A stretch of 62,264 nt of DNA, counting the filler, from Bipalium vagum (taxonomy: Eukaryota), in the NCBI GenBank assembly GCA_037834085.1. It is 3 parts of 3 records of this genome, joined end to end, with 100 filler letters (N's around TTAATTAATTAA, not from the genome) between each part and the next. Parts side by side here need not be neighbours in the genome. Positions count along the whole stretch, not along the records: positions 1 to 21,726 come from JBBMKC010232948.1; 2 more parts are not named here. The stretch is one strand, 5' to 3'. Of the stretch, positions 1 to 20,396 are shown piece by piece. A program made the position numbers and the translations under genes. The notes under the pieces were generated by a model that did not search any database, was not told the origin of the DNA, and worked only from the letters and a program-made list of their open reading frames with translations. Position 1 is the first letter of the stretch; the number at the start of each line of letters is the position of its first letter.

Positions 1-66
<66 letters not shown>
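1..66. repeat. (TTA)n microsatellite
   Basis: Perfect TTA run at the window start. Confidence 0.95.
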
Positions 67-70
<4 letters not shown>

Positions 71-1009
71 TTTTATTCAACTCCGTACACTTTTGATTAA
101 CCCTGAAGACAGTTATTATTATTAATTTAAAAAAATCAGAATCTCTAATTTTTTTAATAAAATTTATTGATGACCAAAAGTAAAAGGAAGACCCTATCCG
201 TAAATATTGACTCAACTGATAAAATCTAAACTAAACAAATCAGACATCTCAACAGAATACGCTACACTTGTTAGCACAAGTTGAACTCAATTCATTCTAA
301 TAATAATTATTATCATTATTATTATTTTTATTATACTTGATGATTAAATCTTGGATAGTCAATCAAAAACTATCAAGACATTAAATAAACAAAAACACCA
401 ATTGAAAATAACAATAATTGAATGGTATTCATTGATATTTAATTAATATTTAATCTTTTAGCATGATTAACCTATTAAAGATTCAATGGTCCAATTATAG
501 TATTCATCAGTCCACTTCGGGCTTTTACAATAGATTATATCTGAAAACTACTTCAAATCACACTCAGACTTAACATTTTACAGATCCAAATGATCTGATC
601 TTGAGAAAACGTTCACTCTTGTGAAGCTTGAAAAACTTTCAGCACAGTTTTTATAATGGTTACTGATTATTAATAATTCATTTCATTTGTCATTGAATAG
701 TGGAACATTTTTCTTTGATTTTCAGTAATAATTTTTTATTATTTTTTTGTTAAAGTGAATAAAATTGTGTTTTGTCTATATATGGTTGATGTTCGAGTGA
801 ACGTTCTCTCTTGATTTATTTCTCATTTACCATATCTAAATCTCTTTTTCTCTGTTAAGCCACAATGGCGTACTGGTTGTACCATATTATCGGGATCTCC
901 GCTGCAAAGTAGTTCTTCAAGTTCTTGACACTAGATCATAATCAATCGCAATAAGTATTGTAAGTCGTTCAAAAAGACATGCAAAACTTTTTTTTATTTC
1001 GAAAATACA

Positions 1010-1790
1010 ACATACCCTATCTCTCAACATAATTTCCTTTGCAAGTCCTTACACTTTTCCAGCGAGATGCGAGATCTTGGAAAGTTTTCTTAAAAGTTCC
1101 ATTCCACAATCTAAGATATTGGATTTGGAAACTCACTGTTGTGCATGTGTGCGTTATCATTCAGATAATAAAGTTTGAGTAGTCCACTCTTCCGTCATAG
1201 CTTCCTTGTCCTTTGGACGATTTTTGAATACTATCGACTGTCTAATCTCACTCCATTTTCAATGAAATCAATCAAAATTATGCCTTTGCCATCCCAAAAG
1301 ATAGACAGGATTAAACACTTCCAATGACCTGTTGATGATGGCATTTTCTTCGAATGGACTTTGCCAAGCAATGTTCACTCTGAAGACTCTTTTTACACTC
1401 TGGTATATAAAAGGAAAGTGGTGTTTTGTCCTGTGTGATGACCAACACTGTCAAGAATATTCAGCTTTTCTTGACAAATATCAAAACAATGTTGTCACAT
1501 TTCAGCATCCAAAAAGCAAGAGACAAATCTAAAACATAATTTTCGAACACCTCAAAATGTAAGGAGAGAATCAAGATTGCCTTTACTTACATTCAGGCGT
1601 AATATGAACATTCTGGCAATTTTTAATCAGTTTGTAACAAATTGTGTTACCTTTTCAGTTATTTTGTCAGTTATTTTGGTAAGCACCAAGCAATTCTGCA
1701 ACTATTTGCTAATGATTGGTTCCTTCCAAAACAGGAAATAATATGAACATTCGATATTGTACTTCTTCGAGACTCATTTCACAATTTTAG
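1010..1790 (-). mobile_element. Degenerate mariner transposase remnant
   Basis: Minus-strand fragments read 'VITQDKTPLSFYIPECKKS' (decayed ITxDETW..YxPExK), 'ILSIFWDGKGIILIDFIENG' and C-terminal 'RWKSVRTCKGNYVER*'. Contains stops and frameshifts; boundaries approximate. Confidence 0.8.
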
Positions 1791-1859
1791 CTTTTAAATG
1801 AAAACATAGATTCATTTAATATAATAAACAAGATGAACAATAAAATAATAAATATAAAT

Positions 1860-2240
1860 ATAGGGTGCTTTTTAAGTGCATTACAACTTTTTTTGAGATT
1901 AGAAACAAGGAAAAACAATTTTTGCAGAAAAATCTATTTTATTGCAAAAGTAAATGTTTGCCATTCTTTCTTAAAATTATTTCGCTCATATGACCACCTC
2001 GGATGTTCTTGAAAAACTCCACTTTGAGGACCAGATTTTAAACACTTTTTCCAGCATTTCAGGTCGTATATCCTTTATGACTCGAGAAATGTTTTCTTCT
2101 AGTTCGCCAATTGATTTTGGTTTATCAGTATACACCAACGATTTCACATATCCTCACAGGAAATAATCAATAGGAGTCAAATCACACGATCTAGTCCATG
2201 TCTGGAAATCAATTTATCGCTAAATTGTGTTCTTAATAGG
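1860..2240 (-). mobile_element. DD41D/rosa-like (Tc1-mariner superfamily) 3' remnant
   Basis: Minus strand reads 'RSCDLTPIDYFL*GYVKSLVYTDKPKSIGELEENISRVIKDIRPEML', matching the WPPRSxDLTPLDxFLWGYVK motif. Confidence 0.8.
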
Positions 2241-3269
2241 TCTATTATATAAATATTATTTAAATAACAAATAAATTAAATTAAATATAAAATATAAAAT
2301 ATTACACTAAATATAATATAATAAATTAATATAATAATATATATAATTAATTAATATTATAAACCAAACTGATTTTAATTTACCTACGATATAAACGTAT
2401 ATAAACAAAAGTGTATTGCAGAAAAACGTTATTTACTTTATATTATTGTTTATATACGAAAGAAAATTCTTATTGAGTGTACCAAGTACATTCATGAAAA
2501 ATTATAAAACGCAACTGGTAAAAAATTATATTATTTTTTCTAATTTTTCATTGATACAATAGAAAATTGAGACAATCATTTACAGAACAAAAATTTTTGT
2601 AGACAAAAAGAAAAATCTGGATTCCATGTATTACTTTTAGTTAAATGGTCTGACAAAACTTTCTTATATTCAACCAAGACATTGCAACCAAATTCACTTA
2701 TGAAAAAATCACTTTTAGAAACTAGGTTGTTCCTTTTCATAAAATATTCATTTACTGGTCTTGATCAACAGAAAGGGACCAGTAATTCTCGAAGAATCTG
2801 CAATCGCTTTACCAAAATTGAATTAGTTAGGCTATGAAACCATGTCTCATCTTTTATACTCTTCACAATACTTGGTTACTAAAAACTATTTCTCAAATAT
2901 TTGAAAAAATCAACAAATCAACTGTTCTCAAAGGAATAACCTCAGTAATACTTGCTAAGATTTCTTGGCTTCAAAGTGTTAGAGGTTTCCATTGTTCGTG
3001 GATAAATAAACCTTTAGTTTATTGTGAGAACGTATTATATCTACCACGAGGTCTTATTTCGGTTTTAAGCATCTCTACAATTTAATTTGAGAGTTAAGAC
3101 CATTATTTATTAATTTACACCATAATATTTATAAAAAATAAAAAAATATTACATTTTACAATGAAAATTAAATTAGAAAAATTAATATCTCAGTTACTAA
3201 ATTAATAACGAAACACAAATTTATTAATTTATCATTATTATAACTAATTAATATAATTAATAATAATTA

Positions 3270-4120
3270 ACTAATATTCCTCTATTTCTAAGTATTAGCT
3301 GAACACGGTTTGGCATAGACTCTGCTAGTTTTAAATAGTCACTGATAATTTCTGGATCATTGTACGATACTTGAGTCATGGCTGAAATTAGCTTTTTCAT
3401 CACCGAACAAATGCGAATTTTGTATACGGACCATAAATGTTAGATTGGATTAAGGGTCGAAGAATTCCCCAGGTCAACCAAGTACTTTCATTCTCCTCTC
3501 CATCATGTAACTATTCATCATTTTCGATGTGTGACATGAAGCAAGGTCATATTGAAAGATCCTAGAACTGTCTTTATTCTTCCTCTGAAGCTCTGGATAA
3601 ACTCCTTTTCGAAGAACTTCAATATATTGTTGCGAATCTATTTGATTGACTGCAAACTTCCAATACCTTAATAAATAAAGTATAATTAAAACATCTTCTG
3701 TGCCTACTTGACATACTGATTGATGTGGAAGTTGCATAGCTTTTCTCCAGGTGACCTACAAATATGATGAATTCTTTGATCCTGTACAAAGAAAAAGACT
3801 TTTCTCTCCTGTTCTTTCGTCCAATTCTTGAACTTTTTGCCCACTTATATCGTTTTACTTTCATTTTTTTGATTAAAATCTGCTTTTCACAGGTCTTTTG
3901 GCTTTACGACTAAATGAACTGATTTCGATTTGTTTCTTCTTTAAATCCATTTTCAATTCATCACTCATTTTGCGGGGATCATTTTTACTTTTTCATATTA
4001 AGTAACAATCATCTCTTGAAGTGGTTTTCTTCTTAAGACCACAATTTCCTTTGTGTTTGGAAGAAAAGGATCTTGACACTTGCTAAACAATGAAATAGAC
4101 AATTGCAGCAATGTCTCGGT
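3270..4120 (-). mobile_element. Tc1-like (DD34E) transposase remnant
   Basis: ORFs 3474-3737 and 3619-3864 plus flanks give 'IFQYDLASCHTSK...MKVLG*PGNSSTLNPI*HLW' (decayed FQQDNAPCH / WPGNSPDLNPIENLW). Confidence 0.8.
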
Positions 4121-4360
4121 GTCTTTTCTATGAATTCATTTCGTAATATTCAAATACATAATATTCTATATTATTCAAATAAAGACTAAATTATATTATT
4201 AATTTTGCAAATATGTAATATTAAGGTGAAATAATAAGAAATTTCGGTCTACTTCATAAAGTGATATTTGAATATTTATAGTTGTAAATCAATTAATAAT
4301 TAAAAATTTTATTTCGTTATTTAAGTAAGATATATATTTAATACAATTTGTACAATACAA

Positions 4361-4645
4361 TTTGAAATGGTTTAAAAATGCAAATTAAACCAAGGAATTG
4401 AAATTCCGAACACATTCAAGAACATTTGTTCGAATGTATTTGGAGAAGCATCTATAAACCAAATATATGGGAATCCTTTCTAAAGGCACTCGCTTTATAG
4501 TAATTCTATCTATAAAAGTAAGGACTAAAATTTAAATAATTTAATGCTCTATTTTAAATCTAGGAACATTAAAACTCCTTGATCAGTAAACCAAATGGAC
4601 AAAATTATGTAAAATTTGGTTTATATATTTAATAAATTTTACTAA
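4361..4645 (+). mobile_element. Merlin (IS1595/IS1016-like) transposon 3' fragment; inverted copy of 14605-14890
   Basis: Reverse complement of 14605-14890 with about 6 substitutions and one small indel by eye. Encodes '*NGLKMQIKPRN*NSEHIQEHLFECIWR...'. Confidence 0.85.
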
Positions 4646-4681
4646 TAATATTCAAATATTGCAGAAAGATTTGAATTTATT

Positions 4682-5729
4682 ATGATTGATCAAAAATATA
4701 TTTTTCGTGCCGCTCTTTTATTTCAATTCAAATTGGGTGAAATTGCGGCTGAATTGTGCAGAAAGCTTTGCAAAGCTTTTGGTAACAACTTTATATCGGA
4801 ACATCAATGTCAAAATTGGTTTATGACATTTACAGATGGAGACGAAAATCTGAAGGATTGAGAACATGGACATTGACTTTTGACTATGAATTTGGACTTT
4901 TTGAAAGAAAGCATTGAGTCAGATACTCAACAATTCACTCGAGAACTTGCCTATAAATTCAGTTGTTCTCAGAAGACTGTGCAACAAACTGCATCGTCTT
5001 TGGAAAACATATAGACATGGAAAATGGATTCCCCATGATTTTTCAGAGAGCAACAAAACCAGTCGTATTCTTCTCTGCTTTTCATTGCTCTCGCAGTCTA
5101 AAGATAGGCTATTCTTCGATTCAATTTTAGCATCAGATGAAAAGTCAATTCAATACGACAAGCAACATAAAAATTCCAATGGTTGGGCAAAAATGATCAG
5201 GCGACTTCTTTTTGTCTGGTGGAATATACACGGTCTAGTATATTATGAGTTGCTCAATCGAAGAAAAACAATAGGTGCAGAACGTTATTGCCAACAATTA
5301 AGCTGTGTGGACTAGGCTCTTCGTCGGCAAAATACCGCAAAGACTAAATTGTTACATGATAATGCTCGACCGCATGTAGCAAAATTAAAGCAGGTGAAAT
5401 TAGAGGAATTAGGTTTGGAGGTTTTTCCTCATCCGCCATACAGCCCTGATCTGGCGCCAACGGCTTACCACTTGTCCAGGACCATGCAGCATTATTGGAT
5501 TAGAAAAAATGTTAAAATACAGAGGACATTGAAATTTGGGTCAAGATTTACTTTGACTCACAGGAACCTGAATTTTTCAACAGAGATATTCGTGCTTTTA
5601 CTGTAAGATGGCGAAACATCATTTATGTGAATGGTGATTACTTTTTGGATTAAGATAGTGTGTGCTTTGTTTCATGTTTTATTAATATATATTGAAAAAC
5701 TGAAATTTCTTATTACTGACCCTGATATT
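4682..5729 (+). mobile_element. Near full-length dead mariner (DD34D)
   Basis: Contains the 'MIDQKYIFRAALLFQFKLG...' HTH start, 'KWIPHD', 'ILASDEK', 'FVWWNIHGLVYYELL', 'LHDNARPHVA' and 'HPPYSPDLAP', and ends 'GDYFLD*'. Several stops and frameshifts; TIR-like end near 5710-5729. Confidence 0.92.
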
Positions 5730-6057
5730 TAACATTTGACAGTTACTTAGGATAAAACTTTGGGAAATTGATTATATCTCAGGAAAAGAATAATTAAATT
5801 AAGAACTAAAATATATTTTTATTTTTAATTGAAAATGTATTTATGTTAATTACTTGGCCTTAATTTGGGTTGAAATCAAATTTTAATATATAATTTATTA
5901 ATTAATTAGTAAATAATAAATAAATAATAATAATAATAAATGATTAAAATCTTTATTGATAATTCTGAATAAAAAGTGATTCCAATAATTTTTCTTATCA
6001 ATAGTTAGTATTTTATTATTGTTCCAGACATCAATATAATTAACACTATTATTTTAA

Positions 6058-6076
6058 TTATTATTTATTATTATTA

Positions 6077-6147
<71 letters not shown>
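6058..6147. repeat. (TTA)n microsatellite
   Basis: Imperfect TTA run of about 90 nt. Confidence 0.9.
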
Positions 6148-6176
6148 GCTTATAAAAATAATAAGAAATAATACAG

Positions 6177-7187
6177 CTTATTCAAGAAAAGTCTCTTAAC
6201 AGAAGAAGATTGTTGCGTAAAGTTATGAGAGAAAAGTCCACTAAATCTTCCGATAACACAAAATCTGAGGAAATGGCACAAAGCATTGTATAATTATTAT
6301 TTCATTTCTTGAATTCAAAGATCTAATTATTATACAGAACAATAAAAATGAAAATTGTAACCATTCCGGTGACATCGTCCAGAGTGACACAATTCTTAAA
6401 AGATTGGATGAGCTGAAAAATGAGGTTTGAGGTATTTTAAATATATATCATTTATGCTATAATTATTAGCTTAACAACATTACTGATCTAACCAGGAGGA
6501 GAGAATTAAGGAAAGAGATTCAACAACTTGAAGAGAAGTCTAATTGCTAAAAGCTGTACATAATATGATGTCCATTTAATAGGAAATGTGATTGCAATTC
6601 AGAGGCGACCTCTGTCGAACGAATCACTTCAGTGAAAGAAACCGATAAAGTTGATGGGTCATTTAATAAATCAAAAGTAAATCGATCTGATAGCCAGAAT
6701 ATAGAAGACCGTGAAAAAGTTGAATTATACAATAACATAAAACCTTAAAAAATTATGCAGAAAGAAATAAAATACAATACTCAGACCTCAGTGGAAAAAG
6801 CTTATGAAAGACAAGCACCAAAAACCCAAGAATCAAGTCTCACAACTTTGAAATCCAATGTTTATTTATTGTCAAATCAAATGCAACCTTCAAGTACCAA
6901 AGATCAGGTCCTACCTCAAAGTAATTTTAGTTTCATCAAAAATACCTTATTAAAATAGAAATAATTTCAAATACCGAGGAAAAGATTATCAAAAACGAGA
7001 ACACATTTTCAAGCTTGAAACGGTTAAACAGTTCAAATCCAGTTTCCGATGTTCGAAGCCGGCAGACAAGTGAGTCTGCCCTTCCTGCTGGAGAAAAGCA
7101 GGTGAAAATCTCTAGAGTAAGTAGTATGAGAGACATGTTTGAAAAGCCAAAATTATCAACTTCTATCAAACCACTCCAAGTAAGATT

Positions 7188-7235
<48 letters not shown>

Positions 7236-10200
7236 TTATTTTTATTATTATTTAAAAACCTTTCTGCTTCTTTTGACTAGAAAGATGAAACTATCCAATC
7301 TATAACTCAGAATAATATAGAGAAGGGTAAGTTCAGTGACAGGGTAACAGACAACCATTCTTCTAGTCTCAAATCATTTCCATCCGATAATAGCTTATTA
7401 AGAAATACAGTTAAGCCACCAAACGAAATTAATAAATTATCATCTCAAAGTAATGTTGTCCTTTGACTTTTGAAAACATCTAACTTCCCAAATCCAGCAG
7501 TAGACAATAGAAAAGAACAAAAACCACAAATTTCAAGACCATTAAGTACCTCCAACACGTTCCGTGAATCTTCGAAAACTGAAATTAACGAACGTCCCAT
7601 TCCAATGGACCAAAAAACCAATATTCTTAGACCAGGCAATGTAAAAGAAAAGCTTGAGCAACCAGGCTCTCAGACCTCAAGTAAGGTGTCATTAATAATT
7701 TACGTCATTAAAATTTTACGTTAAAGATACGCAAAGAAAAACTGCCACAGTGAAACTGCTAAGCGATAATGAGATCAATGATTTGGTTAACAGTATTTTA
7801 AAAATGGATGAACCAAAACCAAGTAGCTTTTATATTGATGTTATGTCATTATATTAAGGAATGAATTAAGATTTATTCCTTTTTCAACAAAAATATTTTA
7901 ATTCCCATTATACAGTGAGAAATATTCGCTTATATGAGGTCGTTTTTTGTCTCTTAATCTTAGATCCTATCTTGGTACAGAAATGAGAATCTATGAACAG
8001 CAACGATTTGGACAAAATAAGTTTAAAAATGAACTGAATTTCTTTAAGAAATCGGAATTTTATTAAAACAAACAGAAAAGTCCGAAATATTTGGTTATAA
8101 AAATAGTTACTTTGAAGGAAAACTATAAGAAATTACAATCGTTACTGTTTTCTTATTTAGATTTTAATACTTCGTTGGTTTTCCGTGATTTTTGGTGTCC
8201 TCAGAAATCCTGCTAGACATTGATTTGACTAAGTTTTCGGAGTTGATTTTCTTCCAACACATTATAACACAGTTCTTGAGGTATTGAACAGAATCAAATT
8301 GCTTTCCGTTGGCATATACTTTTCCTGTCAAAATTCCTTAAAGGTTTTCGATCGGATTACAATCTTGACAACATGAAGGCTACTCCATGTCAAGTATTCC
8401 AATGCCTGAAAACCATTATTTAGATTCTTTGGAAACGTGAATTGATGCATTGTCTTGTTGACAGGTAAAATGTATGTGCTCGATTTCTTCAAGATAATTT
8501 ACTAGGAGTTGTACATACATGGAAGATGAATGTACGAGTGGAGATGTAACATATAGGAATTGCATCGTGAGATGAAAATGCTCCCCAGATCATTAGAGTA
8601 CCTCCACCAAAATTACGCTTTGATATAATGATGTTGTGTCTGATAATTGTTGTTCTGCTGTTATTAGAATTCCTATTTGGATATTTTAACATTTTTCATA
8701 TTATTAATATTTGATCTATGATGTGATGGGTGAGCGAAGCGTGTAAACAGGAACATCTTGAGGTAATATTTTGAAGTTAGACGTTTTGGAGTACGATTCT
8801 GAAACTTGAAAATTGATTACGTGACATTCGAGAATCGTATTGGTAATTATTAGGTAACTTTGTCGTTGATGAACCGACATTTATTGTCATACTGTGTCGA
8901 TTATTGGGATATTGGGTTATTATTAAACTTAATAGTGATAAAGTGAAGGAATCAGGTTTTTTAATATGAAATATTAACATAAAATTTATTTTAAAGGGCT
9001 TTCAAATATTTTTTAATTGAAGACTTTCCAGTCACCCCTTTGTCATTATTTTAGGAAAACTTTATTAATAACTCTCAACACTAAATTCTACTGGGAATTA
9101 TTAATTTTATTGTTAATTAGCAAATACTGGTGGCAGCAGTAACCTTCATCCGCCAGAACAGAGACAGAGGAAAACTAGTCAAACGTAAGTGATTTTTCCA
9201 ATTCTGAATATTTTAATGTATGGATAACTTTGGGAAATTATAAATTATTGAATAAAATCTCTAGAAAGATTTCATATGATAACTTTTCAAATCTTAAAGA
9301 CTTTTGATCATCAAAATATTTTTCAATTTTTAAAAATTTTTACAACTTCCATTAATCAATTAAACACGGTAGGTTAAAAATGTTTAACATTAAACTATAG
9401 ATTTTACAAAAGTAGATTGATAATAGAAATAATGTATTGGGTGTCAATTAAATAGTTTTACAGCTTTATTAGTGAATATCAAAAGAATCCCTCTTGTAAC
9501 TTGAAAATAAAGACATACACAACATTTATTTATTTTCAAAATGTTCTCTTTTATCTTCCTTGAAATTATGTAATCCATCAGGAACAAACAAGCTAGATTT
9601 TCCAAAAAAGTCGATTGGCATATACATCAATGAATAAATACAATAAGTAAATACATCAATAATCCTTTGTTTCAAATCTTTCAATGAAGGAATTAATTGT
9701 GAATAAACTATTTGCTTAAAATGCCTCTACCTAAAAAGTCAATGTTGGTAAGATAGGGTGACCTTGGTGGTAAATCAATATTTCTTCTTCCAGGCCATTT
9801 TCAGGAGAATTTGGAACATCAATTCTTGAACTGCTATAGACACCATTTTACATAAAGATTATTGAGGAAGCTGAGAGTCATTGAAAAAACAGGCCAAAAA
9901 AGCTTTCAATATTTCCTATTAATTTGTGCATGTCACCTTTTCGGAAAAGAAATAGAGTCCAATTAAACCACCAGCACATACAGAGGACCATACCATGACA
10001 CCATGCAAATTGACAGATCTCTCCATTCTCGGATGAAGATTGTCTAAACACCAATAAGTACTGTTGTGTCTGTTCACACAGTTGTGGATTTGAAATTTTT
10101 TACTTGTCACTTCACAAACTCAGATTACGAAGATTTGCATCTCTCTCAGTTCATGAGGAATTCGAATAAAAACTCAACTAGCCTGTCAAAATCATTTTCT

Positions 10201-11916
10201 GTCAATGACTGAAAACCAATCTGGTTCTTAACGATTTAAAATAAAATGTCTTCACCGCTTTACTGTTTCGTGTGTAGCAGTAGATTCAAAAATTGATTTA
10301 TATTTTCATTCAAAATTTCCCCACTTTGCCTTGCCTGACGTCCAGTTTTTTCTTGCACTCAGGACACTCATACTTTTGATGAAATTGTTGGAATCGATTC
10401 TTGGTCTACTTGGTGAATCAGTACCCATTTCCCGTTTCAGTATTTTTTGAATTGTTATAGATGAGCTAAATTTATACTTTAATTCAACCATTTTGACTCG
10501 CTCTTCTAAACTGCCTGACAATTATGTATAATCTTAAATAAAAATAATTATATTACAATTATATATATTACATATATCACTGACAATGGTTCAGCTAAAA
10601 AAGCTAAATATTCAAAGATTTATTACACTTTAAATTTGTAAAGCTACTTAATTGACATTCTGTATATCTTCAATCATTATGTACAAAAACAAACATTTGA
10701 TATCTACTATTAATAAACAGCACCAGTTAAAAAATAAATCCATTTTCCGTAGAGATTTCTACAAAAAGTTTTTATTATATCAAAGTAGAATAGAAATCTT
10801 GAATTGTGAAACTAAATCGTGGAAAGCATTTAAAAAAGCATCACGATTACTGAAATTAAATTGTCAAAGTATTTGAGAAACTGTCATTCAAAGCGCACAG
10901 TTTTCGTAGAATAAGCTATGGCTGGCCATGTCATGCAAAACTAGAAAGCATTTCAACATGTGACTTCTTAGTTCATTTTTTGTATAAGGAAGATTTACTT
11001 GATCAGGTTTATATTCCAATGAATTTATGTTTAGAAATATTATCAAGATGATTCCTCAAATGAAAAAAATGGCCAAAACTGCACGCTCCACCGTCCAAGC
11101 AATGAAAGAGCAAATTATTGCCTTTTGTCAGGGAAATACGCAAGAATATGAGGTTTATCCCCTAAATTAGAATTATTGTGAAGTTATATGTATATATACG
11201 GTTTTATATGCTTATACCACACGTTATTTACTCAATTGATTTTGCACAATAATCAACTCATAATAATCATTCAAATGATTTTTTCGCTAATAATAAACAT
11301 ATAAAAAATGATAATTTTTGCTTTAAAAATCTCATATCACTTATAGACAGGGCAAATCTCACAATCAAATTAATTTGACTAAAAGCAATAATTGTTCCAA
11401 AGCATCATTAAAAGAAATGTTGCTCATATGGATTCAGAAAAACACTGATGAATATCAAGTACTGCGTCAATTTTATTAATTTTGCGCTATTGCTGCATTA
11501 GACCCCTTCACGAAGTTCCTAACACATAGAGCATCATAAATTTGAGATAATCCTTCCTTTATTTCAGAATGTTCAAATTGTAAACTACTCCAAAAGCTGG
11601 GCCGACGGGCTTGCATTCTGTGCTCTCATTCATCACTTCTATCCAAACTCATTTGACTACGGTTCTCTTAGCTCCAAAAATCCTCTGTACAATTTCAAGC
11701 TGGCTTTTGAAACGGCAAAGTAGTAGTCTCACTTGATGTTGGCCAATGTAAATTGTTGATTTCAGGAAATACGCCAATATTGAACCTTTAATAGATCCCG
11801 AAGATATGTTGATACTGGAAAATCCCGATGAAAAGTGTGTCTATACTTATGTTCAGTTTATGTACAATGCTCTCAAGCAGCATCCGAGAAACATGCTGAA
11901 ACGTCTAGGAAACTGA
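6177..11916 (+). CDS. Smoothelin-like protein with C-terminal calponin-homology domain (multi-exon, 5' start not found)
   Basis: Phase-consistent exons at ~6177-6287, 6338-6424, 6470-6537, 6583-6718, 6761-6920, 6959-7179, 7281-7449, 7498-7680, 7728-7822, 9121-9184, 11035-11152 and/or 11347-11458, 11568-11719, 11766-11916. N-terminal smoothelin-type repeats 'NRRRLLRKVMRE' and 'TDLTRRRELRKEI'. CH domain reads 'NVQIVNYSKSWADGLAFCALIHHFYPNSFDY...NFKLAFETA...IDPEDML..PDEKCVYTYVQFMY'. Confidence 0.85.
8150..8650 (-). mobile_element. Tc1-like remnant inside a smoothelin intron
   Basis: Fragments 'RNFGGGTLMIWGAFS', 'QQDNASIHVS' and 'DCNPIENL*GI'. Confidence 0.82.
9437..10662 (-). mobile_element. DD41D/rosa-like element with both TIRs, inside a smoothelin intron
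   Basis: Imperfect TIR 'tgtcaattaaatagttttaca' (~9442-9462) versus the reverse complement of 10637-10657, 'tgtcaattaagtagctttaca'; flanked by TA. Coding remnants 'MSGSLEERVKMVELKYK', 'VNRHNSTYW...GVMVW...GLIGLYFF' and 'LPPRSPYLT'. Confidence 0.85.
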
Positions 11917-14604
11917 AAAAGCGGGATAATGTAAAATAAAATAGTAGTAGATGTCGGCTTCTAGTTGTTCCGTGATAGGTTTGCTAATAATAATATAATA
12001 GTTATAATCAAAAGTTCCATAAAACTGCAGATGACTGATGACAACCAACTTTCATTTGGCATAAAAATTCAATAAATTCTTTCATTTCTTTTCTTTGCTA
12101 TGTTAACATGAATTTTGAAAGGCAGGTCTACGTCTAAATTACAAGTTAACTCGAGTTCTAATATATATCTAATCATATATATATATACGTTAAGTGCAAG
12201 GAGCTTGTTTAATATAATTTTTCATTTTATTTTATTTTACAATTAAATCTCTTTTGATATTTATATCAATTTAATTGAAAAATTAAAACACGAAGGTGAA
12301 CCAAAGTTGGTGCCAAAAAAAATTTATATTATTAATAAAACTTTACTTTCCTCTCATTAGTACTTCTCATGTTCAGCACTTACTTCTCCGGTGATCACAA
12401 CAATAGCGTGGGCATTGGTTTGAGAATTCTGAAACTTGCTATGTTTTCTCTTGGTAAAATATTACCTAGTTGTTTTGCAGAATATATAAAACGGGAACTA
12501 AGTTAAAATCAAACGATAAAGCTATGTAAAGACCCATTTCCCCTCCTTTTAAATTTTTCCTTGCGCACATAGATGTTTGGAAATTGTTGATCTGTGTTTA
12601 GTACAATATATAGCTGTTTGAGAGAGGTAGTCATTCAACAAGTATTGCAATCACTGTCTTTAAACTTTTTGATTGACCTTGTCTTTTTTTATCATTCAAA
12701 TCGAAGTAACTCGAATTCACAGTTTTACTACTACGGAACCTTGTCAGTAAATATTTCCTCAAATATTTGATATCCTTCCGATACTGGTTTCCGCATTTCG
12801 AATAAAAAGTAAAAGGATGAGATGTATATTTGGCCTATTCATTTATTTTGCCTTCTAAAAGTGTTAATTTAAATAAATAGCATTTAAGGATGATCGGAAA
12901 GTTTTGGCACAAAATATATAAGCTGTTATAAACATATGTAAAGTTAAATTAAATATTCAGACATTTAAAATAAGTTGTTATTTTGACTGTTGAAATATAA
13001 CTAATGTTATTACTTGTTTTGGTTTTAGACCAGAATTAGTGAAACCCCTTAATAACTAATACTCATGATGTTAGGTCTACAAGTTGAAAGGTGCTTATTA
13101 AGTAAATGACTCCAAAGTTACAATCTAACCGAAATTTGTTTTAAATAAGAAAATTTTTAATTAAAGATAATTAATAATTAATTTACACATATTTAAATTC
13201 TATCTTTTGTTAATATTTTAAGAGAGTAATAATAATAAGTATTATCCTATTAGGATGAATTTCGGTGGATGTAACACCAAGGACATCTTTTGTTTAAATA
13301 TTTTATTTTTTTAATTTTTGTTAATTGTCAAGTAACATATTACTCTTTAATTATTTATTAATTATTAACTAAAGAATTGAAAAAGATTTACTTATATATT
13401 TATGTGAATGATAACAGTCCTCTTTAGGGCCATGTGTAAGGGTTTAATTCGACGCTTACTTCGAGATCTAATCTCGAAAATATAAAAATGCTAACACTAT
13501 TCATATAGGTTAGAACTGGGCTCACCAACTACGTCAAAGGTAGTGTAACAAATAGGTGTTCTAAGATACGAGCTATTTTTAATTAAATCAAGTAAGATGA
13601 CTCGTTTTTTGTTACAAAAATATATTTTGTAATACAAATACAACTCTTATCACAGTTATAATATATATATATTAATTAATTAAAGTCTTCTTGTTTTACT
13701 ATAACCGAAGAAGCCCTGATGTCAAAAATGTGTATTCTGTCGCCTAAAGCGAAGCAGAATCGAATTGCCAAGAAAACAAACAAAAGAAATAAGAAGATTA
13801 ATAAAAAGAATGTATTGCAGAATATTTGCTCTGAATACGTTAATGATTATTTAATTAATATTATTTTTCTCAAAAGAGATCGATGTTTCAAATAGCCGAT
13901 GTGTATTTATTACCTTTTATCAGCTTAACTTGTCGGAGCGAAGTGAATTGCGAATTGAATGAGAAAACCAAGAGCTTATATACTCCCGATTTTCACATTC
14001 CTGATCTCTTGATTGATGGAAAATAAGACTTTCCATTAATAGAATAATATGGGGTTTTTGCTATTTTAGGAAAGTTCTTATATTATAGAATTTACTAAAT
14101 ATAGCCTCCCACATATTAATTATTTTTCATATTAATGTATTTTTAGTAAGTTTTATTTTCTAATTTATTATTATTCATTATTAATTATAATTATTTTATC
14201 AATTAACTTCAACCCACAATTTATATTATTATTATTTTACTTATTTATATTAATTAAAAACGAATATATAATTTAATTATTATTTATAAAATATAAAATG
14301 TAAAATGACATAAAAAGAGTCAAAATATAAAAGAAAGTAAGCCTAACAAGGCTTTTTTCATGTACATGTTTAAAATCAAACTGTTTATTAATTGTCAATA
14401 ATGAGCTTTGGAGAATCATCCTCCATAAGCTCTTGCTCTGGATGTAGAGGTTCCGTCTCAATTGCGGGCTTTGAATTTGAGTTGATTGGTACTGGGACCT
14501 TTTTTTCTATAGATCAAAACACATGTATATACATATATATAGATTGTTAAGTTATTATTAATTATTAAGTTATTATTATTAATAAACAATTTATAGTAAA
14601 TTAA

Positions 14605-15055
14605 TAGTAAAATTTATTAAAAATATATAAACCAATTTTTACATAATTTTGTCCATTTGGTTTACTGATCAAGGAGTTTTAATGTTCCTATATTTAAAAT
14701 AGATCATTAAATTATTTAAATTTTAGTCCTTACTTTTACAGATAGAATTACTATAAAGCGAGTACCTTTAGAAAGGATTCCCATATATTTGGTTTATGGA
14801 TGCTTCTCCAAATACATTCGAACAAATGTTCTTGAATGTGTTCGGAATTTCAATTCCTTGGTTTAATTTGCATTTTTAAACCATTTCAAATGCCTTCAAT
14901 ACTATTGGTGCTGACAACAGTAATTGGATTTATATATGAAACAGAGTGATTGACAGTTTTATGTTCATATCCCTTATGAGCTAATCCAATATACCTTTTT
15001 GACATATCAGTGTGTATGATTGTTCCATGTTTCACATGTTTCGTAATTTTTTTTA
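14605..15055 (-). mobile_element. Merlin (IS1595/IS1016-like DDE) transposase remnant
   Basis: Minus strand reads 'KHVKHGTIIHTDMSKRYIGLAHKGYEHKTVNHSVSYINPITVVSTNSIEGI*NGLK...HLFECIWR', matching the GTxIxTD / HxTVNHS / TNxIEGxW / YLxEFxWR motifs of Merlin/IS1595. Confidence 0.88.
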
Positions 15056-15462: not shown

Positions 15463-18400
15463 TCATAATCTGGAATATTGAACTCCTTGAATATTAAACG
15501 GAATTAATTTCAGAACAAAAATAAATTAATTTCTTACCAAAATTATACTTGCTATAAATGCTCTTGAAAAATTCTTCCAACACAACTGCCATCTCCATGA
15601 TCTGAGTTTCTGGCAAATTGTATTCTTCGGCATTGAAAAATATCTGACCGATATCTGCAAGGAACAATTTCAGTGACGGAACGCCACCGCGATATGCACC
15701 GTTCTTGCACTTGTCCATCATTTGGACGAGATCCATGGGCGCAGTAATAATCTGGTAATAGTCGGGTACCTGAATAAAATAAACATTTAATATAATCCTA
15801 TCAACAACAACGGTACCTCTTCTGGATCAACGGGTTCACGGAACGGCCATGACGCTTTGTGATTCATTAAATGTTTCAGCATGCTGTGACATGCTTTTTC
15901 GATTTTCTCAGGATTTATTTCACCATGACTGTTTCGAGCGCGTTTAATTACTGTGTGGCCACCGTCACCATTGCTATCGACAGCTGAAACACGTTTTCTA
16001 TTCACTTTCTTTGAAAACAGACTAGACAAATTCTCCACATCTTGGTCTGATTCTTCTGCGTCGCTATTCTGCACTCGTGTTTTGTTATCCTTGTACACCG
16101 TATCATCGGATTTGGCACCATATCTGGTTCTCTTTCTCGAAGGCCTTGAAGAATTTTTGTTTCCACTTATTGCGTCTTCATCATCACTAATTCCAACGTC
16201 TTCATCGTCTTCTGATTCTGTCTTGTCTTTGAATGATTTCTTTCTTTTAACGCCAGCACCGTTTCTCGACTCCGTCCCTATGGACTGTTTCTTCGTGGTT
16301 TTCTTCACAGCCATGGTTTTCTTTGATATTACATCTTTTTCTGCAACATCAACAACGTCCTCAAAATGGGTTTCTTCGTTTGACTCGTTATCCTCCTGTC
16401 TTTCCGTTGCTGCGGAACTACGAGATCGATTACTGTTTTGTTGTGATTTGACCTTGTGAATTGAGACCTCATCCAACCGACACTCACAACAGTGCCAATT
16501 CATTCGCCGAATTTGGCGCAAAGCCGGTTCGTGACATTGAGCATGAAAGCATTTTTTGCAAGACGTACATTTGGCCAATTGGTCACCATTGCTACGACCG
16601 TGGCACACACAGCACTGTTCTGAGCCGGCCGCCTGTCGTGTTTTCGTCTTCAAAGATGTCATCGTGGTTGCAACCGTGTTATCATTGTGACCACCACCTT
16701 CATTGTCACGAGCCCGGCATACCGGTCGGCAATGAGGACAGAACCATTCACCGTCTGGCACATCGTGTAGTGGAGGACGCAAACAGAACATGTGAAAAGC
16801 GTGATTACAACTGTCACAGAGTAACATGGCGTTTTCGTCGGAGCTCTTTCGGCAGACACGACATTTGTCGTCTTTGGCAGATTTGCTCCAGCACACACAG
16901 GCGTCCAAAAACGATTGTAGCACGTTCAATCGACCCTGGGTCTGAGCCTGTTGAACCGCATTGAGGAATTCGTTGCGACCGTTTGACGACTTGAGTGGCG
17001 GATTCAGAAATCGTTCATGAACACCCAAAAACACCGTCACGAGCGCTTGTTTCATTTCATCTATCGATTGGGCATTGATTAGGCACCGGTTCCATTCTTC
17101 GTAGCTCTCAACACCACCTAGACTGCCACTGCGAATCGACAACTCCGTTTCGCGCAATTCATTTTTGAATCCTTTTACCAAAAAAGATTCGACTGGTTCT
17201 GCATTCGGCGACTTCATATCTGTTGCCACCGATTCTGTCGCAGGTACCGACTTGTCCATTTCTTCTTTCAATCGTGGCAAAATCGATTCCAGCTCAATTC
17301 GGAGCGAGCTTTCACGAATACCCTTTTCACACAAACTATCGATTACTTGGACGATTTCCTCCGGAGACTTGTACATTGTCCATTCCGTTTCAATCGGTTC
17401 ACAAAAACTGCCACTATCCGGATTCAATTCCTTTTCCACATACACGGCACCGGGAGCCGTACTGAAATACCAATATCGACGGAAGAATCTATCACATCCC
17501 AAGGGTTGGATTCGCATCAATTGCTTGGCATCGCTTATCGCTGTCAAGTACGCTTTTTGACACTGCTCTATCGATTTTCGATATGTCATCTCTTCCTTCT
17601 CCAATTTTTGCATTTGTCTTTCACTTTCCAATCGTTTCTCTTTCTCTTCGGACTCCTTCAATTTCATTTCAATCGACTGACGCCGCCTGGCAACCTGACT
17701 GTACTCTTCACTACCAAATTGATCCGCTCCCGAACCTCCATTTTCATTGATAACACCTGTTCCATTATTGGTTTCGGCCATAGTACGGCACACTGCCTGT
17801 TTTGTTTGCCTCAACGATTTCAATTTGTCATTAAACTCTTTGGTATCTGACACTTTCTTTTTATATGCTTCACACGCTTCTCGTTGAAACTCGTCAATAA
17901 ACGAACTGACCATATCTAGTTCAAGAATTCGACTCTGTAAAAGTTCCAAAACGGAGATTTTGTCATCGATCGATAATTCGCAGAGTTCTTCTGTTTCCAG
18001 TTTCTCACAAATTGGAGCGGCGATTTTGTTATTGCTATGAGTAAGCATTTCGCTCTGAAAGAAAACTTGTTATTGCCGTAAACAAGAAAAACAAGTGAAA
18101 AAACACATCCCAACTTCTGTTCATTCTCGATATTAAAATAACAAAAACTTACCTCTTCTGCACCGTCAACAGATTCTTTGTTGTCCTCGACTTCGTCGTT
18201 ATCGTTCGGCTCCAGCTCCTCTGAATTTCGCACTTCCTCCAATACCAGAACCAAACGCAACAGTTCCCCGGCCGTACATGCCGTCACCGCCAATTCAGCC
18301 AGACCAAGTCCCATTTCGCGTCGATTCTAAATTTTTTTTTTAATATCAATAACGAATATCGACGTGTTTTCTATTCATACCCTGACCCGATTGTCTTGCA

Positions 18401-20396
18401 AAAGTGTTTTCAATAAGACACAGACCAACTCAGCGAGAACGGCATGCTCTCGATCACTATTTTTTACTACTGCCAAACACAATTCCTCGTTACAAATCAC
18501 CCCATTGCTATCATTAGCTTTTCCTGTCGGTACCAGAAGCTTCTTGTAACAGCGAAAGAATTCTGACATTGACAATAACCGGATCCATTGGTCCATTCTC
18601 AAACCGTCACAAACTATCACCGGGGTCCCATTGGGGATTTGTTTTGTGTACTCGATCTCAATATCTTCCACTTTTGCATTCTCCTCGCGTTTCTTCTCAC
18701 GCAATTGCGCTCGTAATTGAATTCTTCTAGCTGACATATAGGCTTCACGTTCCTCTTGGTTCATGGCATCACTAAAACGATTTAAACAGTTAAAATTGAT
18801 TATGTGAAGATAATTATTAAATCATTTGAGGTTTATGTGCAACGAGAAAATATAAAATCAATAAGAAAAAAAAGTTGTTCCCACATTTTCTTTTTCTCGT
18901 CCAACTTTTCTTTTCGAGCTTTGATGGGAATTTTGATGATATCGGGAAATTTATTGATTTGTTGATTGCTAAACAATTGACAACATTTGAAAATCAATTG
19001 TTTGACACCGGGATCGTTTGGACTATCCTTGACCAGCTTCCACAATCGCTGGGCCAAAGGTGGCAACGACCGTGTCGGACTGGACAGTGGAGATCGGATT
19101 TGGGTTTTGGGCGCCGGGGCATTCTGGGGTCCGGCAGTAATAGGAATTTCGAACAAAGTTGCCTGTTTTAATTTTTTCTTGGTTTTACCGCTCTCGTTGG
19201 ACTTTTTCGACTTTGTATTTCGCTGTGTCTCGTCTTCTCCTTTTATTAAATCACCACAGCCACTTTGGTTTTCTTTCTGACCCGACTCTTCCCTGATTTT
19301 GTTGTACATTTGAATTTCTGTATTTCGTGAAAGCTCTTTCATTTTCGATTTATCGACCACAAATTCTGGCTCAAGCACCGGCAATCGATATTTCTTCACT
19401 AAATCGTCGTCGACAACCCAGGGGAAGTTCTGCTTGCCAGAATGTCTGATAGCATGTGCACGAATAAACATTCGAATCTGATCTTTACAAGGCGGTCTAA
19501 GCGTGCGACTGGAAAGTTTGAAAAAATAGTTAAATCAATACAGAAATCGATACTTTGTTTATTGATCGGATAAACATTAGATAAAAATACGTACTCTATC
19601 GTTTCCGCTGGAATATCTTTCACCAGTTTGTCCATTTCGAAGATTTTAACGCTGTAAAAATAGTTTTTCTGAATTTACACAATAAAATACACAATTAGAA
19701 TTTAATGTTCTACTTTGACTGGGATTATTTTCTTTTTTGTATTTTCTTTATCACTGCTTGACGCATCTGAGTTGAGTTTGTTTGGAGAATTCTTATTAAA
19801 TAATAATGAATATAAGATAATAGTTCAAAATTGCTAAAACAATTACATCTGGTTCTTTGTCTTCATTGGACTTAGATCTGTCGACTTTAACCACAATACC
19901 CTTAAGACTAGGAAAATTAATAAGAATTTCCTATGGACAATCACGCAAACATACATCACTTCTTTCGGAGAGGTAAGTTTAATGGTCACTGGTTCATTAA
20001 CACAAAACTCGTGATGAATTTGGGTCCAAGATTTGTGAACAAGAGTATCAAGACTTTCCTTGCCTATATTTATATCTTAATAAATTCCACAAACAAAACT
20101 GCGTTACTGTGATGAACAAATTGAAGGACAGTTGCTTCGAAACATTTCTTGAAAGTAGTTTTCAACATTTTTGCCCAACTTTGTTCTGATTTCATAGCTT
20201 CTTTGAAAGTTAGATTTATCTGACCTGATATTCGACATGTCCATATTTTTTGATTATATAAGAAAGTTTTTCGTTTAAATTCTTCTTCATTTTCGCAAAT
20301 TTCATTTGTTAAAGAATGAAATAAAAGAGATTCCTCATCTTTCTTGTCTTTTTTAATCTTGTTGAGAATATAAAGCTTGTTTGATAATAATGGCAT
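15463..20396 (-). CDS. BAZ1A: Bromodomain adjacent to zinc finger 1A / ACF1 (WAC-DDT-WHIM/WSD-PHD-PHD-bromo)
   Basis: N-terminal WAC 'MPLLS...YNQKIWTCRISGQINLTFKEAMKSE'; DDT 'LLSMSEFFRCY'; WSD 'PLGCDRFFRRYWYF...W...EEIVQVIDSLCEKGIRESSL'; two PHD fingers (CRVC..LLCDSCNHAFHMFCLRPPL..GEWFCPHC and CCVC..CTSC..H..C..WHCCEC); bromodomain '[26 protein letters not shown]...IFFNAEEYN'. Short GT-AG introns, e.g. 20107-20064. Stop at 15463-15465. Confidence 0.95.

Follow-up and report, generated by a model that had tools for sequence, protein, structure and literature searches.

Tandem exons for helix I of the smoothelin CH domain in Bipalium vagum: a probable, old mutually exclusive pair

A smoothelin-like gene on the plus strand of a 62,264-nt stretch of Bipalium vagum DNA (assembly GCA_037834085.1; the whole stretch is hereafter the window) carries, near its 3′ end, two neighbouring exons that both encode the first helix of the CH domain. 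From comparative sequence evidence, we put at about 0.8 the probability that Bipalium vagum uses these exons, A and B, as alternatives, that is, as an old mutually exclusive pair of which one is spliced in at a time. The W form, containing exon B, would keep the canonical helix I behind a flexible linker, and the F form, containing exon A, would swap the conserved Trp and set a basic amphipathic segment directly before helix I. This is likely an old splice switch, because mollusc, brachiopod and shrimp gene models carry the same pair. The features concerned are the following:

6496..7822 (+), seven coding exons from the upstream part of the smoothelin-like gene, with its low-complexity N-terminal region, placed by frame continuity
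9121..9184 (+), common upstream exon U, ending in phase 2; AG/GT sites, frame from the upstream chain
11035..11152 (+), putative alternative exon A, F-type: basic amphipathic segment and CH helix I with Phe for the conserved Trp; 118 nt, phase 2 to 0
11113..11393 (+), possible RNA stem in which 11113-11130 of exon A would pair with 11376-11393 of exon B, 16 of 18 positions complementary
11153..11346 (+), A-B intron, 194 nt, AG-free over its last 163 nt
11347..11458 (+), putative alternative exon B, W-type: linker and canonical CH helix I; 112 nt, phase 2 to 0
11349..11350 (+), second AG before exon B; its use after A would give an in-frame A+B with a 108-nt B
11568..11719 (+), common exon C, CH helices II-IV; 152 nt, phase 0 to 2; Pfam CH 40.8 bits
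11766..11916 (+), terminal coding exon D, helices IV-VI and stop; single copy, the sole match in the window (61.3 bits)

The gene and its constitutive exons

The window has a G+C content of 28%, and its introns are mostly 38-55 nt long with weak donors. The eight upstream exons (6496-9184), whose boundaries are our own picks by frame continuity, give 355 open codons with 2 nt left over, so that the donor after 9184 is of phase 2. Splice dinucleotides are present at this donor, at exons A (11035-11152) and B (11347-11458) and at the common exon starting at 11568. In this regard, the coordinates and splice dinucleotides given in the first-pass annotation were all borne out, including the second AG at 11349-11350, and its assignment of both exons as phase 2 to phase 0 is upheld by the upstream chain together with the frames of the A-C and B-C junctions. 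One public contig, which may be the source of this DNA, spans positions 10950-11960 unbroken, with 0 differences, introns included, and no joints.

Further upstream, an exon at 6338-6424 ends in phase 0 and the next one starts in phase 2, a mismatch (window positions 6338-6537) which could stem from a sequence error, an overlooked micro-exon or the use of a different donor. The upstream Smoothelin domain PF12510 is found in many members of the family, though not in all; it gave no match in two short upstream exons or with a local profile over positions 1-9300, a region that has diverged.

The constitutive part of the domain places the gene in the smoothelin family. Exon C finds its best PDB matches in human smoothelin (2D87, E 2e-16) and SMTNL1 (2JV9), above actinin, EHBP1 and MICAL. 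No close relative of exon C came to light, the best identity being 74% in one search and 70% in another. As is typical of the family, there is one type-2 CH domain, which is C-terminal and ends 49 codons into exon D. The mouse helix-I exon measures 118 nt (SMTN, SMTNL2) or 115 nt (SMTNL1) and is followed by an invariant exon of 152 nt, and in vertebrate smoothelin a single 118-nt helix-I exon precedes the 152-nt one (E19/E7) (PMC10643981). The same succession is found here, with a 152-nt exon C behind helix-I exons of 118 nt (A) and 112 nt (B).

Among the related loci (the best 80 of 547 confirmed), the helix-I exon is separate in 41, contiguous in 13 and not in range in 26. All 41 separate-exon loci show an AG before exon C and 40 of them a GT after the helix, indicating a conserved intron. 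No second helix-I or F exon was found in these 41 genomic loci, 10 of which extend more than 5 kb upstream. Similarly, a second terminal exon is absent from the window, and none of the 48 loci with a match had two.

Two exons for helix I

When the 29,487 22-mers of the window were scored against a helix-I profile, exon B ranked first (21.4) and exon A second (11.8), both above the top score obtained across 20 shuffled windows (10.1). When a richer profile was used and candidates had to end at a GT, as both exons exactly do, the two scores rose to 27.8 and 17.5, the runner-up among 1,417 candidates on both strands reaching 2.8. These matches are not due to chance. Moreover, upstream-A-C and upstream-B-C each yield a full CH domain, of 173.1 and 175.7 bits respectively with an HMM of 20 homologues, which together with the profile ranks sustains the original proposal that both exons encode the smoothelin CH helix I. 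Taken alone, neither exon was detected in a Pfam scan, and the ESM Atlas gave no usable match for exon A.

The two exons display several of the characters used to recognise mutually exclusive exons, as they are neighbouring, similar in sequence, in the same frame and of like length (118 and 112 nt). Their likeness is confined to the helix, where 7 of 22 residues are common, the 5′ halves being wholly different. For exon A, two other acceptors, at 11007 and 11048, have higher scores, but they would not keep the frame set by the phase-2 donor and were rejected.

The pair in other animals and its age

A search for the same exon pair in other invertebrate smoothelin genes, as suggested in the first-pass annotation, found it in gene models of Lingula, Liolophura, Haliotis, Elysia and Penaeus. 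The first two protein searches yielded 97 scorable helices, of which 96 carry Trp and one Phe, the latter being isoform X5 of Lingula anatina. Three species offer both types in RefSeq: Lingula anatina (X3 and X5 F-type; X1, X2 and X4 W-type), Liolophura sinensis (X2 F-type; X1, X3, X4 and X5 W-type) and Haliotis rubra (X1, X2 and X4 F-type; X3 and X5 W-type). In all 15 of these isoforms, which are predicted models, as are the database gene models behind every F and W tally given here, exactly one helix type lies between shared flanks and the two never occur together, which lends support to the either-or reading first advanced. In Liolophura, the swap starts at Lys versus Asn, consistent with a phase-2 boundary.

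Additional F-type segments were found in Elysia crispata, E. marginata, Plakobranchus ocellatus, Penaeus vannamei and unnamed JGI/Logan/ENA proteins, two of the latter reading on into a Val codon immediately past the exon end, as expected from a GT in phase 0. Another protein (P0256) is F-only, with the F part running straight into exon C; in a tree of exons C-D it falls together with Penaeus (91/90). Altogether, 287 proteins comprise 9 F, 198 W, 2 with both and 78 unclassified, numbers that are not frequencies because F forms were deliberately sought after the first Phe case. The F exon was not found among the retrieved flatworm proteins. As a separate observation, two models of Opisthorchis felineus (P0011 and P0302) differ in that one of them has 22 extra residues inserted where the helix-I exon begins, which suggests an alternative acceptor at that exon.

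The resemblance of exon A to these F exons extends over both of its halves. An HMM built from four F exons, the window excluded, ranked A first of 6,981 open stretches with 29.8 bits, against 8.9 for B. In a tree of 24 helix columns, from which two W rows were left out, A and eight F rows form one group (98/99) and B falls among the W exons; the grouping of A with the F exons persists when the W/F column is removed (97/97). The first 15 residues of A, which lie outside the tree block, can be aligned ungapped with six mollusc-type F exons (shuffle P 0.00075), scoring 14 to 20 against these six and -30 to 1 against 24 W exons. By its sequence, exon A is the counterpart of the F-type exon of Lingula, Liolophura and Haliotis. 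For its part, exon B has the Met-Leu-Leu and the Trp of the W type, along with an Asn-Thr whose Asn occupies that column in 6 of 6 F exons and 0 of 24 W exons, through either conversion from A or convergence.

A duplication private to the Bipalium vagum lineage, with the F-likeness of A arising by convergence, would account for the fact that an A+B clade is not rejected by the AU test (p 0.29, 23 columns), and also for the likeness between the 3′ ends of the two exons, where 32 of 66 nt are identical (P 0.0002 versus shuffles) and the Asn-Thr is common. Such nucleotide likeness is nevertheless expected between any two helix-I exons, and only the 7 helix residues mentioned above are held in common by A and B. 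Moreover, the N-terminal half of A aligns ungapped with the mollusc F exons in the region where B scores -17 to -18, and the exon order is the same in Elysia and Penaeus, all of which makes a private origin very improbable. The pair is more likely an old one, to judge from its presence in lophotrochozoans and crustaceans, and it would probably be as old as the protostomes, with patchy loss, provided that the F exons of crustaceans and lophotrochozoans are orthologous.

An old pair may also have fallen out of use in part, one exon no longer being spliced in Bipalium vagum and now decaying. The branches of the helix tree are long (A 0.74, B 1.06), a pattern compatible with relaxed selection and with fast evolution alike; both acceptors are weak, and the F exon seems lost or absent in many lineages. 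However, the constitutive exons C-D of Bipalium vagum also sit on a long branch (1.56), without firm placement. Both exons keep open frames, lengths of 3n+1 and donors within the range of 22 introns, and exon A has stayed free of Gly and Pro, with a charge of +4 and an amphipathic moment like that of the mollusc F exons. Decay of one exon is therefore unlikely.

How one exon at a time may be spliced in

Since both exons are of 3n+1 length, wrong combinations meet early stops. Skipping both exons leads to a stop 136 nt before the last junction, and joining A to B at 11347 leads to one 237 nt before it; messages with both exons or with neither would then be removed by nonsense-mediated decay. 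The rule holds at the main acceptor, 11347, and the acceptor at 11351 escapes it, as A+B joined there stays in frame without an early stop. The caveat already attached to the first annotation, that the second AG allows in-frame inclusion of both exons, is thus confirmed by translation and by the level scores of the two acceptors (3.1 for 11347 versus 3.0 for 11351 with one scoring, and -0.6 versus 0.4 with the other). In a human atlas, lengths other than 3n were reported in 60% of mutually exclusive clusters, the frameshifting configuration being the commonest, and joined reads in only 22% of such clusters, from which it follows that some other control usually acts first (PMC5740500).

With a splice-site model built from 22 introns of the window, the donors of A and B fall within the range of 22 other introns and both acceptors are weak. 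Such weak acceptors may let cell-type splicing factors choose between A and B. A long AG-free stretch is a sign of a distant branch point, followed by scanning to the first AG. That of the A-B intron begins about 31 nt after the donor of A; its 163 nt are unusual in comparison with intron shuffles (P=0.002), and that length is reached by only 15 of the window's 5,521 AG gaps. This hints at such an arrangement in the A-B intron, and the stretch perhaps helps splice choice. Branch-like motifs lie 53-190 nt from the donor of A in this 194-nt intron, except for one at +4 inside the donor; this donor-internal match aside, no branch motif near enough for steric exclusion (<50 nt) was found in the A-B intron.

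RNA structure provides a weak lead only. The A:B stem has a z of -1.8 and a P of 0.03-0.08 under synonymous shuffles, 5 of 260 window tiles being equally strong. In the local fold, the donor of A pairs with the start of B (0.92), yet the acceptor of C, a constitutive site, is paired as well (0.98), and the A:B duplex as a whole does not stand out (P 0.14-0.30).

The tie between the two acceptors of B, together with the open frame through 11351, raises the question of whether A and B are mostly co-included, so that a spare helix would precede a canonical CH domain. In this line, F and W parts are joined in three gene models, one of Elysia crispata (P0287), one of Penaeus vannamei (P0209) and one unnamed (P0085), always in the order F then W, as in the window. 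These models suggest that exclusivity is not strict, unless they are prediction errors, as their ragged junctions hint: P0287 and P0085 have a truncated F part, and in P0209 the F part is followed by a Val-initiated run-on. Errors are the likely explanation because of this raggedness, and the 15 RefSeq isoforms with a single helix type also stand against co-inclusion. Furthermore, 11347 is the first AG after the 163 AG-free nt, and only with this acceptor does exon B keep the ancestral 3n+1 length (112 nt), as 108 is not 3n+1. Routine joining of A and B is for these reasons quite unlikely, and the use of A or B as alternatives remains the preferred reading.

Consequences for the protein

The Trp of helix I is described as one of the two most conserved residues of CH domains (PMC7240100). 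The first-pass annotation had presented exon A as a W-to-F variant of the helix; the Phe for Trp holds, and the description needs refining since the F exon also adds a conserved basic segment. AlphaFold models of the chiton F and W isoforms are both CH domains with a helix I pLDDT above 90, and the F model differs from 2D87 by an rmsd of 0.9 over 104 columns. Both forms are predicted to fold into a normal CH domain, and the Phe to be tolerated in the core, because the F isoform models as a CH domain.

The larger change lies before the helix. In the 15-residue region preceding helix I, mollusc F exons have 12-15 of 15 residues in common, and W linkers 1-3 of 15. Exon A and six F exons are all free of Gly and Pro over these 15 residues, with a charge of +4 and a hydrophobic moment in the range 0.39-0.49, and 24 W exons contain a mean of 4.6 Gly/Pro there. 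The F exons of Lingula and crustaceans are shorter and lack most of the basic segment. AlphaFold places no helix in the F segment (pLDDT <50), from an alignment dominated by W-type rows (34 of 40), and a disordered model of this kind would fit folding on binding without showing it.

SMTNL1 has a Ca-calmodulin site at residues 310-325, a short way ahead of its CH domain, and tropomyosin binding is tuned by the upstream region (PMC5359911, PMC7240100). The likeness is an analogy drawn from position, and the accessible parts of those reports do not describe the SMTNL1 site as alternatively spliced. From the conserved basic upstream segment and these pre-CH sites of SMTNL1, we infer a switch of partner or affinity, and the F form would most likely change a binding partner on the thin filament. 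That the F segment is itself a binding site has, on this analogy, a little under an even chance, and that it is a calmodulin site specifically is doubtful.

A broader proposal, speculative and on balance improbable, would be that the protostome ancestor had a smoothelin switch that traded the most conserved residue of the CH domain and installed a basic amphipathic binding helix. It would have been kept in molluscs, brachiopods, crustaceans and Bipalium vagum, and would separate muscle types (e.g., catch or smooth versus striated) by turning a calmodulin/tropomyosin site on or off. A smoothelin-like protein has been reported as enriched in scallop catch muscle (PMC5963113). The function of the smoothelin CH domain is still unsettled, and a natural, old isoform without the Trp and with a conserved basic segment offers a ready test of the role of helix I and its linker. 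F and W forms can be distinguished in existing RNA data from mollusc and shrimp muscle.

Relation to known systems

Alpha-actinin exon 8 lies within the CH region. Its alternatives 8A and 8B in ACTN2 and ACTN4 resemble the present pair in being mutually exclusive and in belonging to an actin-binding cytoskeletal protein, and an effect of the 8A/8B swap on cell migration has been reported; the gene is a different one, and the available part of that report mentions no swap of the helix-I Trp or the upstream linker (10.1101/2024.10.05.616792). The muscle myosin heavy chain clusters (PMC3912159) and those of the human atlas (PMC5740500) are likewise made of neighbouring homologous exons of like length and frame, and both sources describe old tandem-duplicated exon clusters as gained and lost patchily. 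The Bipalium vagum pair differs from those clusters in that about one third of the helix residues are common and the 5′ halves are wholly unlike.

Within the family, the E20/E21 system of vertebrate smoothelin shares with the present gene the single C-terminal type-2 CH domain, the 118- and 152-nt exons and CH variants produced from homologous exons (PMC10643981). There, helices IV-VI vary by means of a cassette exon that carries a stop of its own, and helix I comes from a constitutive exon, whereas in Bipalium vagum helix I would be the variable part and the terminal exon is single. The 2023 analysis of the family treated the helix-I exon as constitutive and found no other splice-varied CH domains (PMC10643981). 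In Lingula, isoforms X1 and X2 (P0178 and P0282) differ from the start of the terminal exon, as in vertebrate E20/E21, and this animal, as far as its gene models tell, seems to vary both ends of the CH domain.

Altogether, the mechanism is known from myosin and actinin, and variation of the smoothelin CH domain is known at helices IV-VI; the helix-I pair is apparently new and is unremarked in the RefSeq models. The literature searched, by listings and abstract starts, held no description of a helix-I smoothelin exon pair, which genome-wide exon tables could list, and the main text of the human atlas has 0 matches to SMTN (PMC5740500).

Neighbouring features of the window

Other genes are recognisable in the window. 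A BAZ1A/ACF1-like gene (WSD, PHD, bromodomain) occupies positions 15494-20396 of the minus strand, with a 2.3-kb exon of about 45% G+C, compared with 28% for the window. An ankyrin-repeat gene, presumably a TRPV channel, is found at 33830-41350 of the plus strand, and single exons resemble Golgin A2 (PF15070, 25786-26371, plus strand) and the zf-MIZ of PIAS (55111-55500, minus strand). What we take to be broken fragments of Tc1/mariner-like transposases lie at 4649-5650, about 9750-9950, 42453-42854, 43926-44384 and 46532-46825, one of them inside the intron before exon A. Lastly, an element of about 270 bp, spotted by eye, occurs as two near-identical copies in opposite orientation, at about 4366-4640 (plus strand) and 14620-14890 (minus strand).
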